Assembly (NCBI RefSeq): GCF_044324875.1
Contig: NZ_CP172185.1
DNA length: 64,000 bases
Strand: one strand, 5' to 3'
DNA from: Escherichia coli
Lineage (GTDB): Bacteria; Pseudomonadota; Gammaproteobacteria; Enterobacterales; Enterobacteriaceae
A model generated the notes under the pieces. The model saw nothing but the letters and a program-made list of their open reading frames with translations, was not told the DNA's origin and ran no database searches. The translations under genes were made by a program, and so were the position numbers. Position 1 is the first letter of the stretch. Each line of letters begins with the position of its first letter. This document shows positions 13,885 through 64,000 of the stretch, piece after piece.

Positions 13885-14035
13885 TCTGCGATTTATCATC
13901 GCAACCAAACGACTCGGGGTGCCCTTCTGCGTGAAGGCTGAGAAATACCCGTATCACCTGATCTGGATAATGCCAGCGTAGGGAAGTCACGGACCACCAG
14001 GTCATTGCTTCTTCACGTTATGGCAGGAGCAAACT
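13885..14035 (+). promoter_or_regulatory. TPP riboswitch (THI-box) in the thiM leader
   Basis: ggggtgcccttctgcgtgaaggctgagaaatacccgtatcacctgatctggataatgccagcgtagggaagtc (13916-13988) matches the thiM THI element; located directly upstream of thiM; 5' boundary approximate. Confidence 0.85.
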
Positions 14036-30961: not shown

Positions 30962-31048
30962 AAAAAATAAGCCCGTGTAAGGGAGATTACACAGGCTAAG
31001 GAGGTGGTTCCTGGTACAGCTAGCATTTTATGGGTTATGTTTTTCAGC
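30962..31048 (-). ncRNA. cyaR: CyaR (RyeE) Hfq-dependent sRNA
   Basis: Minus-strand sequence gctgaaaaacataacccataaaatgctagctgtaccaggaaccacctccttagcctgtgtaatctcccttacacgggcttatttttt matches CyaR as I remember it, including the terminator hairpin and U-tail. Confidence 0.9.
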
Positions 31049-31079
31049 GAAACAGATGATAACCTTAATAAATGCAGCT

Positions 31080-35366: not shown

Positions 35367-36089
35367 TTAAACGATGCGGCAGGCGTCGGCTTCCCAGCGG
35401 TAACCGACGCCGTAAACGGCACGGATAAAAGACTGTTCGGCGTCGAGAGATTCCAGCTTGCGACGCAGGTTTTTAATGTGGCTGTCGATGGTGCGGTCGG
35501 TTACTACGCGGTAGTCGTCATAAAGATGATTGAGCAATTGCTCGCGGGAGAACACTTTTCCTGGTTCATGAGAGAGCGTTTTCAACAGACGAAATTCCGC
35601 AGGCGTCAGGTCAAGCATTTTACCGCGCCATGAAGCCTGAAAACGACCTTCGTCGATAATCAACGGGCTTTCGGCATCCTGTTGCTGAAGTTCGCGTTGC
35701 GGTTTGCAACGGCGCAAAATGGTTTTGACGCGCGCTACCACTTCCCGTGGGCTGTACGGTTTGCAGATGTAGTCATCTGCGCCAATTTCCAGCCCCAGCA
35801 GGCGGTCGATCTCTTCGATTTTTGCTGTCACCATCACGATCGGAATGTCAGAAAAACGACGAATCTCCCGGCACAGCGTCAGGCCATCGGTGCCAGGAAG
35901 CATAAGATCCAACAGAATCAGATCCGGTGGTGTCTGGCGTACATATGGCAGTACCTGATCGCCGTGGCTAATCAACGTTGGCGCATAGCTCGCAGCACGC
36001 AGATAATCAATGAGTAACTGCCCCAGCTTCGGTTCATCTTCCACGATCAAAATACGCGGTGTGTTTTCGTCGATTGGTAACTCGGTCAT
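35367..36089 (-). CDS. baeR: OmpR-family response regulator BaeR
   Basis: 240-aa ORF; receiver domain ([10 protein letters not shown]...D) plus winged-helix output; 4-nt overlap with baeS. Confidence 0.93.
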
Positions 36090-37489
36090 ACTTCTCTCTG
36101 TAAATCCCGTTCCAGCGGTAACTCTACTGTAATGCTTACCCCGCCAAAAGGCGAATGGGCAGCAATAATGCGACCATTATGTGCTTCAACAATGTTCAGG
36201 CAAATCGCCAGCCCCAGCCCGGAACCGCCGCTGGCTCGGTTGCGGGAACCTTCGGTGCGATAAAAACGTTCAAACAATTTTTGTAGCTGATCGTCACTGA
36301 CGCCCGGCGCGCTGTCGGCAAAGGTCAGTCGCACCGTTTTGTCGTGCTGCTCGGCAGAGATTTTCAGGCTACCGCCGCTGTCAGTGTAGCGCAGGCTGTT
36401 TTCCAGTAAGTTATTGAATAACTGCATTAAACGGTCGCGATCGCCAAATACGGTAATACTGTCTGGCAGGGAAAATTGCAGTTTCAGGCCACGGCTGGCG
36501 AATCGTTCGCGAAATGCGCCGCCCGCCACTTCCAGCAGTGGGATCAAATCTACCGGTGCTTTTTGATAGGCGAGAGCGCCTTCATCAGACATCGACAACT
36601 GATGGAGATCGTCAACCAGTTTGGTCAGTGTACCGACCTCCGCCTGTAAAGACGCCACCGTCTCCGGCGTGAATTTACGCACGCCATCCTGAATGGCTTC
36701 CAGTTCACCGCGCAGCACCGCTAATGGCGTACGCAGTTCGTGAGAAATATCGGCCATAAAATCGCGCCGCATTTGCTGGTTTTTCTCCAGCGTGCTGGCA
36801 AGCTGGTTGAAGTCTTGCGCCAGTTTGCCCAGTTCATCTTCACTGGTGGGTGTCACGCGGGTAGTGAAATCGCCCGCCGCCAGTTTGTGCGTGCCGTCCA
36901 CCAGCCGTTTGACCGGGGCCAACAGACCACGCGCCAGCAGAAAGGTGGCGAGTGCCGCGAGTAACGTAGCCAGGGCGACAATCAGCCAGCTGGTTTGCCG
37001 CTGTTGTTTATCGAAATTGATATCAGTATTGCGGGTCAGTCGCTCAACAGGGGAGGCAATCACCGCACCCACTTCCGCACCGTTGACCAGAATGGGTCGC
37101 CGTGTACCGTCAGGTGGAATCGGCGCTCGCGGACCAACCAGCACTTTGTTGTTTTGATCGATCACCCAGAACTGAGTACGCCAGCCGTGCGGAGGCATAC
37201 CCGGGCCGGGTTTATCTTCCGAATTATCGTGTTCAAATGAACGCAGGATCTGAAAGACAAAGCGATCGTTGTTGCGCAGGAAGCGCCAGTTGCCATGCTG
37301 CGCATACTGCTCGCCAAGCGCATCACTTAACAGCTGTAATCGCTGTTCATTGCCGTGTTTGATGTAATCAATAAAGCCACGCTCAAAACTGATACGCACC
37401 GCCCAGTGCATACTGATCAGCAAGACAATGCAGGTGGCGAAAATCGCCAGAAACAGTTTGCCGGTAATACCGGGTCGCCAGAACTTCAT
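36086..37489 (-). CDS. baeS: Envelope-stress sensor histidine kinase BaeS
   Basis: 467-aa ORF, two TM segments, H-box (HELRTPL), HATPase domain. Confidence 0.93.
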
Positions 37490-46579: not shown

Positions 46580-46720
46580 AACGGGAAAGCCCCTCCCGAG
46601 GAAGGGGCCTTAAATAAGGAAAGGGTCATGATGAAGTGGATCATCATCGTGGTGCTCTTAGTGATTAGCTACCCAGCATACTAAGACTACCAGGGCGGGG
46701 GAAACCCCGCTCTACCCTCA
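46580..46720 (-). ncRNA. Putative Sib antisense sRNA, copy 1 (antitoxin of the overlapping ibs)
   Basis: Minus-strand promoter ttgaca-17-tacttt (weaker -10 than copies 2 and 3); terminator hairpin gcccct...aggggc then tttcccgttt; boundaries approximate. Confidence 0.45.
46628..46684 (+). CDS. Ibs-family small hydrophobic toxin, variant MMKWIIIVVLLVISYPAY (copy 1)
   Basis: 18-codon ORF at the same position in the repeat unit as the other two ibs genes. Confidence 0.6.
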   Translation: MMKWIIIVVLLVISYPAY

Positions 46721-46907
46721 CTCCTGAAAGTATGCCTTCACGATAAGATTGTCAATCTGCAGGCTTTGCAGTCTGCGATCCTGCCAGCAAATATTCTTTG
46801 CGAGACGTTACGCAATAATCACACTGGAAACTATTTTATCCGCAAGTCAGCGATAGACTGCATACAGGGCGAAAGGAGGTAAGTCGACGATTTCAGCGGG
46901 ACGCTGA

Positions 46908-47048
46908 AACGGGAAAGCCCCTCCCGAGGAAGGGGCCTTAAATAAGGAAAGGGTCATGATGAAGCTACTCATCATCGTGGTGCTCTTAGTCATAAGCTTC
47001 CCCGCTTACTAAGACTACCAGGGCGGGGGAAACCCCGCTCTACCCTCA
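46908..47048 (-). ncRNA. sibB: Putative Sib antisense sRNA, copy 2 (SibB-like)
   Basis: Minus-strand promoter ttgaca-17-taattt (-35 at 47078-47083, -10 at 47055-47060); terminator hairpin 46917-46936; boundaries approximate. Confidence 0.55.
46956..47012 (+). CDS. ibsB: Ibs-family small toxin MMKLLIIVVLLVISFPAY (IbsB-like)
   Basis: 18-codon ORF; matches my recollection of IbsB. Confidence 0.65.
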   Translation: MMKLLIIVVLLVISFPAY

Positions 47049-47237
47049 CTCCTGAAATTATGCCTTCACGATAAGATTGTCAATCCGCAGGCTTTGCAGT
47101 CTGCGATCCTGCCAGCAAATATTCTTTGCGAGTCGTTACGCAATAATCACAGAGGAAACTATTTTGTTCACGCGTTAGCGATAGACTGCATTCAGGGCGA
47201 AAGGAGGTAAGCCGACGATTTCAGCGGGACGCTGAAA

Positions 47238-47383
47238 CGGGAAACCCTCTCCCGGAGAAGAGGGCTTTTAATAAGGAAAGGGTTATGATGAAGCACGTCA
47301 TCATACTGGTGATACTCTTAGTGATTAGCTTCCAGGCTTACTAAGAACACCAGGGGGAGGGGGAAACCTCTCCCTAACCCTCA
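47238..47383 (-). ncRNA. sibA: Putative Sib antisense sRNA, copy 3 (SibA-like)
   Basis: Minus-strand promoter ttgaca-17-taattt (-35 at 47413-47418, -10 at 47390-47395); terminator hairpin ccctct...agaggg then tttcccgttt; boundaries approximate. Confidence 0.55.
47285..47344 (+). CDS. ibsA: Ibs-family small toxin MMKHVIILVILLVISFQAY (IbsA-like)
   Basis: 19-codon ORF. Confidence 0.65.
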   Translation: MMKHVIILVILLVISFQAY

Positions 47384-47564
47384 CTCCTGAAATTATGTCA
47401 CTCCGCCCTTAGTGTCAATCGACGGCTCTCCGTTCTTGCGAGGCGAATAGCAAAATTTTCTGCGCCGCCGGGCCTAATTCTGAAAGTTGCTTTGCCTGCT
47501 CATATTTCATTGTTGCAGTCGGTATGATACCGGACCTCAATAATTCTCTAAGAAAGGATTTCTT

Positions 47565-60429: not shown

Positions 60430-62013
60430 TCACACCTCGTACTCCATCTCGCTATCCTTACGCAGCGGTATAATCTGCACCTTCTGCACGCGATGGCTTT
60501 CCACCTGCAACGTTTTAAGCAAATAATCCCCCACCTGAACTTCTTCGCCAGGTTTTGGAATACGCTGCAAATATTCCATCAGCAGCCCGGCAATGGTGTG
60601 ATATTCGCGTTTCTCATCCAGCGGTAGCGGCACATATTGCACCAGATCTTCCAGTGGCATATGACCATTCGCCGTCCAGGAACCGTCGGCGTTTTTCTGA
60701 ATATCATGGCGGGCGTCGATCTCTTCCACTTCGTTCGGCAAGTTACCGGCAATAGTTTCCGTGACGTCACTTAATGTCACAATCCCTTCCACCGAGCCAA
60801 ACTCATCCACTACAAAAGCAAAGTGCGTGCGGGCATTACGGAACTGCTCCAGGGCAGGTAACAACGGCAAGGTTTCCGGGAACACCAGCGGCTGGCGAAT
60901 CAACACCCGCAGGTTGAGCGGTTCGCCGCGCAGAGACTGTTGTAGCAGGTCGATAACGTGAACAACACCGAGCAAATCTTCTGCGTCATCACCGTCGGTA
61001 ACCACCAACCGCGTATGCTGATTTCGCTCCAGCAACTGGCGGATTTCTTCTTCCGGCGCGTTGAGATCGATATGCTCAATATCGTGGCGCGACGTCATAA
61101 TGCTGCTGACGGTACGCTGGTTAAGATTAAGTACCCGCTCAATCATCCGCCGTTCCTGCGGATTAAAGATCTGCTGGTTACCATGATCCACCAGCATGGA
61201 CGCGGTTTCGGCGTCCAGTTCCGCATCTTCTTTTTGCCCGCTAAGCAGGCGCATTACCGCTTCGGTAGTCCGCTGGCGCAGCGTCTGGTTAGCGGAAAGA
61301 AAACGTCGCCGGTTAAAGATAGCCAACTGATTGAGCGCCTCGATCATCACCGAGAAACCAATAGCAGCGTACAGGTAGCCTTTCGGAATGACGAAGCCGA
61401 AACCTTCTGCCACCAGGCTAAAGCCAATCATCAACAGGAAGCTTAAGCAGAGAATAACGATCGTCGGGTGACTGTTAACAAATTGCGTTAACGGCTTGCT
61501 GGCCATCAACATCAGGCTAATAGCGATAACGACGGCGGCCATCATGACCAGTAAATGGTCGACCATCCCGACGGCGGTAATCACCGAGTCGAGTGAGAAG
61601 ATGGCGTCCAGTACCACAATTTGTGTCACCACCCCCCAGAACTTCGCACCTTTGCGTTGCGTGGGGTTATTGCTGTCTTTCCCTTCCAGCCGTTCGTTCA
61701 GCTCCATCGTGGCTTTGAACAGCAGGAAGAAACCACCAAACAGCATGATTAAGTCGCGGGCGCTAAAGGTAAACGAGCGAAAGCTGAATAGCGGTTGTGT
61801 CAGGGTGACCAGCCAGGAGATTGACGCCAGCAGTAACAGGCGCATTAACATCGCCAGCAGCAGCCCGGTAACCCGTGCGCGGTCGCGCTGCTTCGGCGGT
61901 AGTTTTTCGGCGAGGATGGCAATAAAGACCAGGTTATCAATGCCGAGGACCAGTTCGATCACAATCAGCGTGATTAACCCGGCCCAGATAGACGGATCGG
62001 CAATCCATTCCAT
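60430..62013 (-). CDS. yegH: Inner membrane protein YegH (TerC-like membrane domain, CBS pair, CorC/HlyC-type C-terminus)
   Basis: ORF 60430..62079; start taken at [34 protein letters not shown] (527 aa); domain assignment from memory. Confidence 0.8.
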
Positions 62014-62481
62014 AGTAAGTACAAAACCTATTCGTTGTATGACAAATGTCACAATTCGATCATGGATAAATCGGGGCAAAAATGCAATGTTGCAGCACTA
62101 TTTATCTCATATTATTTGAGGGTAATAACCTCACATTATCCCTGAATTAAAAGTGGTAATAATAAAATATTATTTAAGAAATATCGCATGTGGAGACGCA
62201 ATATTAAATATTGTCAACCTAAAGAAACTCCTAAAAACCATATTGAATGACACTTAATATAATTCTTAAAAATAGCCAATTGCCGAATTGTTACCTTGCC
62301 TGCTATTCCGTTAGCTGTAACACTTCCTCCTGCATTATTGGAGAGCCAATATTCAATTACCATAATGTCACCTTATATTCGGAAGTTAATTTCCGTAATA
62401 ACCCTTTCTCATCAACGACTGCATGCTGAGAGGGTGTGAAAAATTAAACTAAATCAGTGTATTGGTAGCTAAAAAGCCAGG

Positions 62482-62493
62482 GGCGGTAGCGTG
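62482..62493 (+). promoter_or_regulatory. ops element (RfaH recruitment site) within a JUMPstart sequence upstream of wza
   Basis: ggcggtagcgtg matches ops consensus GGCGGTAGnnTG; in the long 5' leader of the colanic acid cluster. Confidence 0.8.
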
Positions 62494-62671
62494 TCTGGAT
62501 GCCTGAAAGACCAGTCTGAATTATTCTGTCAATAGCCTGCGGATGAAATCAATTTTTTTAGGACTGATGCCAGTTAAATTTTTATTCAATTAACTGCAAG
62601 GTAAATGTGCATGGCGACATTGCTATTAATAGTGCACAGGATAATTACTCTGCCAAAGTGATAAATAAACA

Positions 62672-63811
62672 ATGATGAAATCCAAAATGAAATTGATGCC
62701 ATTATTGGTGTCAGTAACCTTGATAAGCGGTTGCACAGTACTTCCGGGCAGCAATATGTCGACGATGGGTAAAGACGTCATCAAACAGCAGGACGCTGAT
62801 TTCGATCTCGACAAAATGGTGAATGTTTATCCGTTGACCCCGCGCCTGATTGATCAATTACGTCCACGACCCAATGTAGCGCGCCCCAATATGACGCTGG
62901 AAAGTGAGATCGCGAATTACCAGTATCGCGTCGGGCCGGGGGACGTTCTTAATGTCACCGTCTGGGATCACCCGGAACTCACCACGCCAGCCGGTCAGTA
63001 CCGCAGCTCCAGCGACACCGGCAACTGGGTACAGCCTGACGGCACTATGTTTTATCCGTATATCGGCAAAGTTCACGTGGTGGGGAAAACGCTCGCTGAA
63101 ATCCGCAGTGATATTACCGGGCGCTTAGCGACGTACATCGCTGACCCGCAGGTGGACGTTAATATCGCCGCCTTCCGCTCGCAAAAAGCCTATATCTCCG
63201 GCCAGGTGAATAAATCCGGCCAACAGGCGATCACCAACGTGCCACTGACCATTCTCGACGCCATCAACGCCGCAGGTGGCCTGACCGACACCGCTGACTG
63301 GCGCAACGTGGTGTTAACACACAATGGTCGTGAAGAACGCATTTCATTGCAGGCGCTGATGCAAAACGGCGACCTCAATCAGAATCGACTGCTTTATCCT
63401 GGCGATATTCTCTACGTGCCGCGTAATGATGATCTGAAAGTGTTTGTGATGGGTGAAGTGAAGAAACAGAGCACCCTGAAAATGGACTTTAGCGGCATGA
63501 CCCTGACTGAAGCCCTTGGTAATGCTGAAGGCATCGACATGACCACCTCCAACGCCAGCGGCATCTTTGTCATTCGTCCGCTGAAAGGCGAGGGTGGGCG
63601 TAACGGCAAGATTGCCAATATCTACCAGCTGGATATGTCCGATGCCACGTCGCTGGTGATGGCGACAGAATTCCGCCTGCAACCTTATGACGTGGTGTAT
63701 GTCACCACCGCACCGGTTTCCCGCTGGAACCGTCTGATCAATCAGTTGCTGCCAACTATTAGCGGTGTCCGTTACATGACGGATACAGCCAGCGACATTC
63801 ATAACTGGTAA
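62672..63811 (+). CDS. wza: Outer membrane polysaccharide export lipoprotein Wza
   Basis: 379-aa ORF; lipobox LISGC; first gene of colanic acid cluster. Confidence 0.93.
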
Positions 63812-63816
63812 TCGTC

Positions 63817-64000
63817 ATGTTTAACAACATTTTAGTTGTCTGTGTCGGCAATATTTGCCGTTCCCCGACGGCGGAACGCTTACTGCAACGTTATCACCCG
63901 GAGCTAAAAGTGGAGTCCGCTGGACTCGGCGCGCTGGTCGGAAAGGGCGCTGATCCTACCGCTATCAGCGTCGCCGCAGAACATCAACTGTCTCTGGAAG
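63817..64000 (+). CDS. wzb: Low-molecular-weight protein-tyrosine phosphatase Wzb (5' part; continues beyond window)
   Basis: MFNNILVVCVGNICRSPTAERLL, CX5R P-loop of LMW-PTPs; truncated by window end. Confidence 0.85.
   Translation, partial: MFNNILVVCVGNICRSPTAERLLQRYHPELKVESAGLGALVGKGADPTAISVAAEHQLSLE

Follow-up and report, generated by a model that had tools for sequence, protein, structure and literature searches.

Organization of the yegH-wza locus

At the end of the window (the whole 64-kb stretch of E. coli DNA that was analysed), the genes are arranged in the order dcd-asmA-yegH, with yegH on the minus strand, followed by a 658-bp intergenic region and by wza and wzb on the plus strand. 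Based on the open reading frames and on megablast searches against complete E. coli genomes, this order corresponds to the start of the colanic-acid cluster. Of the operon, the window includes all of wza but no more than the initial 183 nt of wzb, the remaining genes being located past its end. The features that frame the leader are as follows.

60430-62013, minus strand: yegH, divergently oriented gene bordering the 658-bp intergenic region on its upstream side (open reading frame and annotation)
62455-62493, plus strand: JUMPstart, 39 nt (Rfam RF01707, full length)
62482-62493, plus strand: ops, GGCGGTAGCGTG (exact match; found in 76/79 orthologous leaders)
62672-63811, plus strand: wza, 379 aa, with which the colanic-acid operon begins (open reading frame; annotated as wza in the closest genomes and in K-12)
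63818-64000, plus strand: start of wzb, 183 nt, running off the window end (sequence; directly after wza in the matching record L001)

The first-pass annotation had assigned the element to a capsule cluster; however, the polysaccharide made by this cluster is colanic acid, i.e. an Rcs-induced exopolysaccharide, and not a serotype capsule.

Over its 658 positions, the intergenic region differs from that of K-12 MG1655 at six and from that of the closest complete genome at three, and none of these differences is in JUMPstart; the K-12 copy of ops is at 2137422-2137433 (complement) of NC_000913.3. Of 5426 complete E. coli genomes, 4817 contain a 71-nt segment around the element with at least 95% identity, and the RefSeq records among the matches listed have no annotated feature at the JUMPstart/ops site. 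The GC content of the intergenic region is 0.28-0.41 vs. ~0.5-0.58 in the flanking genes, and this AT-richness fits H-NS binding. Taken over its full length (62014-62671), the intergenic region is ~92% identical to that of the E. coli species representative (L002) while the two Wza proteins are 100% identical, and in a search with 901 nt the E. coli genomes fell into two bands, one at 99% identity or above (1836 genomes) and one at 95-99% (2991 genomes). Because of this disparity and the two identity bands, the alignments suggest that there may be divergent leader alleles or recombination at the yegH-wza locus.

Elsewhere, the window contains three tandem Sib antitoxin RNA genes on the minus strand (46613-46755, 46941-47083 and 47270-47418; Rfam RF00113, 139-150 bits) as well as two ordinary known elements, the CyaR/RyeE sRNA (30965-31050, minus strand, 100.7 bits) and a TPP riboswitch (13905-14001, plus strand, 71.2 bits).

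An exact ops element at the 3' end of a complete JUMPstart

The 12-mer ggcggtagcgtg, which is ops GGCGGTAGCGTG, is located at 62482-62493 on the plus strand and is the sole exact copy in the 64-kb window, for which equal-base arithmetic gives an expectation of ~0.008 copies on both strands. It conforms to the 12-nt consensus GGCGGTAGnnTG with the 8-nt core GGCGGTAG, and all the bases for RfaH contact and hairpin formation (C3:G8, G4, G5, T6 and A7) as well as T11 and G12 of the pause are present. RfaH needs ops in the non-template strand (PMC9765446); here, the plus strand is the coding (non-template) strand for wza, and the element and the gene share the same sense. The element is intergenic, outside translated genes, and 190 nt before the wza ATG. 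Moreover, a complete 39-nt JUMPstart, CAGTGTATTGGTAGCTAAAAAGCCAGGGGCGGTAGCGTG, ends with this 12-mer; it occupies 62455-62493 on the plus strand, is non-coding, lies 179-217 nt before wza, and is on the same strand as the polysaccharide cluster. The 39-bp JUMPstart element itself was reportedly described by Hobbs and Reeves in 1994.

In the comparison with known JUMPstart sequences that the first-pass annotation had suggested, the element matched Rfam RF01707 over model positions 1-38 of 38 with 57.3 bits, i.e. above the gathering score of 35 (E = 2.3e-12 in the local scan and 1.6e-10 over the whole window), and the same 12-mer with the same -190 spacing is found in CFT073. Thus, the exact 12-mer together with the full-length RF01707 match bears out the original placement of an ops/JUMPstart element at 62482-62493 before wza.

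The general ops consensus GGCGGTAGNNTG has two matches in the 64 kb vs. 0.11 expected from dinucleotide-preserving shuffles, and at least two matches were obtained in 0 of 100 shuffles. The second match, GGCGGTAGCCTG at 36365-36376 on the minus strand, is inside a 467-aa open reading frame for a BaeS-like sensor kinase (36086-37489, minus strand), where it is on the coding (non-template) strand and without JUMPstart context; GGCGGTAGCCTG is also the variant used before wza in Phytobacter and Kosakonia. Because intragenic ops sites in CFT073 gave no RfaH signal (PMC9765446), this match is probably inert. An ops-like sequence, GGCGGTAGTTTT, with the 8-nt core and T11, occurs at 61895-61906 on the plus strand, antisense in yegH and ~590 nt upstream of the true ops. 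It recurs in no loci other than those of Escherichia and Salmonella, so that constraint on the coding sequence of yegH is its probable origin.

Conservation of ops across orthologous wza leaders

A Wza protein scan of species-representative genomes gave 80 loci from ~25 Enterobacteriaceae genera, 79 of them with upstream DNA. The arrangement of yegH on the minus strand followed by wza-wzb-wzc was found in 74/80 loci, the remainder being mostly truncated contigs; considered separately, yegH is upstream on the opposite strand in 76/80 loci, and wzb and wzc follow wza in 78/80. By regular-expression search, ops is located 186-199 nt before the wza ATG in 74/79 leaders; distances near -217 came from protein matches starting at residue 10, and the corrected value is -190. 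Counting also L005, whose ops has a G2A change, and L045, which has an insertion downstream of ops, brings the total to 76/79. The latter, from Citrobacter amalonaticus S646, has ~120 nt inserted between ops and wza, placing ops at approximately -308, and its JUMPstart is intact (59.1 bits).

Among the 76 leaders with ops, GGCGGTAGCGTG is the form in 62, forms ending in CATG, CCTG, CGTA and CATA occur in seven, three, two and one, respectively, and GACGGTAGCGTG occurs in one. Positions 3-9 and T11 are invariant in 76/76, changes being confined to position 10, which is one of the two positions free in the published ops consensus, and position 12, plus the single G2A; G12 is kept in 73/76. According to mutagenesis, RfaH recruitment requires C3, G4, G5, T6, A7 and G8 while T11 and G12 make the pause (PMC5995543), and all six recruitment bases are among those invariant in the orthologues. 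Compared with the window, the orthologous leaders have an average identity of 0.95 in ops and of 0.82 in the 5' part of JUMPstart, whereas the 129 nt preceding JUMPstart reach 0.35 and the 62 nt that follow it 0.64. As judged from the alignment, this pattern is what would be expected for a functional site that is read base by base, and not for neutral sequence.

No JUMPstart or ops was found in the whole 7-kb locus of the three remaining orthologues (L035, L036 and L039), which are Pseudescherichia vulneris, 'Escherichia sp. ESNIH1' and the MAG UBA7338 and make up a Pseudescherichia group. In these leaders, the sequence from approximately -260 to -150 relative to wza has been swapped for unrelated sequence, and the flanking conserved blocks and full-length wza-wzb-wzc have been kept. 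The Pseudescherichia clade represents a natural loss of the RfaH site, and because the group keeps an intact wza-wzb-wzc without JUMPstart, JUMPstart is dispensable for retention of the operon.

Promoter region and transcribed leader

All of the conserved promoter-like sequence in the alignment is upstream of ops, with a sigma-70-like block ~150 nt upstream. Three candidate features were identified in this region.

62175-62188, plus strand: candidate RcsAB box TAAGAAATATCGCA (mean identity 0.70; 9/14 positions shared with the K. pneumoniae box TAAGATTATTCTCA, with the TC core in register)
62255-62268, minus strand: second candidate RcsAB-like box, reverse complement TAAGAATTATATTA (9/14 positions shared with the published TAAGATTATTCTCA)
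62296-62324, plus strand: candidate core promoter with -35 TTGCCT (62296-62301), a 17-nt spacer, extended -10 TG (62316-62317) and -10 AACACT (62319-62324)

The candidate core promoter is the best-conserved block upstream of ops, with a mean identity of 0.84 and with most hexamer bases found in 73-79 of the 79 sequences; the -10 reads AACACT in the window and AACAAT in 73/79 orthologues, and the extended -10 TG is invariant. From this sequence pattern, we infer that 62296-62324 is the wza promoter, in which case transcription would start at ~62331-62334, ops would be at approximately +150, and the leader would be ~340 nt long. The consensus promoter scan reported one site vs. 3.6 in shuffles and did not report the candidate at 62296-62324. 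Its single site, 62339-62366 (TGGAGA-16-CATAAT), is not conserved in the orthologues and was rejected as a promoter.

With respect to the candidate RcsAB boxes, the commonest form of 62175-62188 in other genera, TTAGGA(A/T)ATATCGCA, resembles the flhDC RcsB site TTAGGAAAAATCTTA, and the second box is within a block at 62253-62272 (mean identity 0.86), ~70 nt upstream of the putative start. The cps promoter is said to have been mapped by Stout in 1996 and the RcsAB box by Wehland and Bernhard in 2000. Between both boxes, there is a conserved block at 62212-62236 on the plus strand, TTGTCAA...TCCTAAAA, possibly serving as a second promoter or for binding of a regulator. A 49-aa open reading frame at 62214-62363 on the minus strand runs antisense over the conserved wza promoter blocks. 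The RefSeq annotations of many E. coli genomes include it as a "hypothetical protein"; located in regulatory DNA that is AT-rich, it is probably an artefact of annotation.

In the CFT073 study, the wza transcription start is given as NA because the operon is silent in the wild type, and a sigma-70 peak was detected upstream of wza in the data from the hns stpA strain (PMC9765446). Because RfaH loads only on a transcribing polymerase that exposes ops, the ChIP signal at the orthologous site (PMC9765446) indirectly supports that ops is within the transcribed leader. Together with the conserved promoter-like block, this provides strong but indirect support for a position of ops within the transcribed wza leader.

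An intrinsic terminator scan of the leader gave 0 sites, and the leader downstream of ops shows no unusual folding (z = -0.03). Because there is neither a terminator-like site nor a special fold in the leader, the termination that is countered would be Rho- or H-NS-dependent and further downstream.

The wza start region

The region immediately before wza has the following feature.

62636-62671, plus strand: wza translation-initiation region without Shine-Dalgarno sequence, highly conserved (mean identity 0.93)

These 36 nt before the wza ATG are more conserved than the first 20 wza codons (0.93 vs. 0.89). The wza anti-SD duplex has an energy of -1.6 kcal/mol, which puts it in the weakest 5% of the 40 long open reading frames in the window, compared with -8.7 kcal/mol for dcd and -7.9 kcal/mol for the baeS-like gene. 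The lack of a Shine-Dalgarno sequence before wza agrees with the published recruitment of 30S subunits by RfaH to leaders without one (PMC5995543). A long operon with such a leading gene, which is typical of the family of RfaH targets without strictly defining it, is also what is found here, with wzb and wzc following wza.

A leader block at 62556-62580 on the plus strand has an identity of 0.91 across ~25 genera, also above that of the first wza codons (0.89). Possibilities for the blocks at 62556-62580 and 62636-62671 are a regulator site, an sRNA site or a ribosome-loading platform. More tentatively, and with a probability that we regard as low, the near-constant distance from ops to the ATG (~186-199 nt), the start without Shine-Dalgarno sequence and the block at 62556-62580 might together form a module of fixed geometry that serves as a platform for RfaH-coupled ribosome loading or for another leader function. 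Were this so, the Pseudescherichia clade, in which JUMPstart is swapped and the blocks are kept, would be a natural experiment that separates the two.

RfaH at the wza ops and proposed mechanism

ChIP experiments in CFT073 gave an RfaH signal at the wza ops (GGCGGTAGCGTG, -190) in cells without hns and stpA, and this signal was gone upon deletion of rfaH (PMC9765446). In wild-type CFT073 in rich medium, the operon was silent and there was no RfaH signal (PMC9765446), from which it follows that the site is conditionally used. By analogy with this orthologous site, RfaH would also occupy ops in the strain analysed here; the rfaH gene is outside the window, and we assume its presence in the genome. 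In addition, colanic acid synthesis has been described as being under JUMPstart-RfaH control with reference to Stout 1996 (PMC9976346; also PMC3101779). The established mode of action of RfaH at ops involves the pause at U11, the C3:G8 hairpin, exclusion of NusG, and 30S recruitment via S10 (PMC5995543; PMC9765446). Of note, folding of the 12-mer as DNA gave a register of C3-G10 and G4-C9, unlike the published C3:G8, and was disregarded because the motif is too short.

We conclude, with a probability of roughly 0.9, that the element is the ops of the JUMPstart with which the E. coli colanic-acid operon (wza-wzb-wzc-wca...) is equipped in its 5' leader and that it operates by the following mechanism. 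Transcription would start at the Rcs-activated, H-NS-silenced upstream promoter, at the putative start at ~62331-62334. Approximately 150 nt further on, the polymerase would reach ops and pause at U11 (T62492), G2, T11 and G12 fitting the consensus pause. In the paused bubble, the non-template (plus) strand would form a hairpin closed by C3:G8 that exposes G5 and a flipped-out T6 for contact with the RfaH N-terminal domain. Freed from autoinhibition, RfaH would then remain on the polymerase and keep NusG off, and would suppress pausing, Rho-dependent termination and H-NS/StpA roadblocks along the ~20-gene operon, while its refolded KOW domain would bind S10 and aid ribosome loading at the wza start that lacks a Shine-Dalgarno sequence. 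That this sequence of events takes place in the present strain is predicted from the site and from the work on its orthologue.

Alternative explanations

We considered that JUMPstart might mainly be a structured RNA in the wza leader, with a role in stability, processing or folding, and that the ops match is secondary. In Rfam, JUMPstart is listed among the cis-regulatory RNAs and is drawn with a 5-bp hairpin, and a corresponding feature is found in the window.

62462-62480, plus strand: potential stem-loop of 5 bp within the 5' JUMPstart half, with 62462-62466 pairing with 62476-62480 (Rfam consensus structure)

The stem-loop includes an upstream GGTAGC (62464-62469) that repeats the GGTAGC of ops (62485-62490). 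Consistent with a kept stem, pairing is possible in 99.1% of cells when 44 distinct orthologous variants are compared, and the loop varies in length and sequence. However, there are no compensatory changes, with 0 double-sided changes among these variants, and the covariation score was matched by 207/500 shuffles, a comparison that is uninformative because the stem hardly varies. Moreover, the highest conservation is in the unpaired ops 12-mer and not in the stem, the 56-nt region folds ordinarily (z = -1.07), and the invariant ops bases match the requirements for contact between DNA and RfaH (PMC5995543). We therefore consider a mainly structural role of JUMPstart improbable.

Marginally less probable still is that ops persists as a conserved pause signal or as an evolutionary remnant without appreciable effect on colanic-acid expression and that expression is set at initiation by RcsAB and H-NS. 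The silence of the operon and the absence of RfaH from it in wild-type cells in rich medium (PMC9765446) would be compatible with such a scenario, as would the intact wza-wzb-wzc in the three loci without JUMPstart. It is at odds with the invariance of positions 3-9 in 76 leaders from ~25 genera while the adjacent leader falls to 35% identity, with the presence of RfaH at the orthologous site upon derepression of the promoter (PMC9765446), and with the description of colanic acid as RfaH-regulated (PMC9976346; PMC3101779). Finally, although ops-consensus 12-mers occur within genes too, as at 36365-36376 in the window, a chance 12-mer in intergenic DNA has a negligible probability and was excluded by the shuffles (0.11 expected per window for the degenerate consensus), by the full 39-nt JUMPstart in which the motif is embedded (E = 1.6e-10) and by the conservation of its position in 76/79 orthologous loci.

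Significance and comparison with known systems

As an ops element that recruits RfaH, the site would explain the full-length transcription of a ~20-gene, AT-rich, H-NS-silenced operon once Rcs activates it as well as its translation without a ribosome-binding site. Marking the site is useful for annotation and bears on the engineering of colanic-acid overproduction; current understanding is unchanged.

The 12-nt GGCGGTAGnnTG in the non-template strand of a 5' leader is shared with the validated RfaH targets rfaQ/waaQ, rfb/wzx, hlyCABD, kps and tra, which are long operons for surface or secreted structures, and the 12-mers of the rfaQ and wzx ops in CFT073 are identical to the GGCGGTAGCGTG of wza (PMC9765446). 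In the CFT073 targets, ops is ~60 to 634 nt away from the first gene (PMC9765446) compared with 190 nt here. These operons are transcribed and bound by RfaH in ordinary laboratory growth, whereas wza needs derepression or activation, i.e. removal of H-NS or Rcs induction. In group 1 capsule loci (E. coli K30 and Klebsiella cps), the same element precedes the homologous wza-wzb-wzc; however, the order in those loci is galF-JUMPstart-wzi-wza-wzb-wzc, whereas here JUMPstart is between yegH and wza and there is no wzi, which is the colanic-acid arrangement. The element has nothing new in it and is the already-known colanic-acid ops/JUMPstart, as the first-pass annotation had also recognized: it is identical to the element in the colanic-acid (cps/wca) leader of E. 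coli K-12 and CFT073, with no substantive difference (Hustmyer et al. 2022, PMC9765446).
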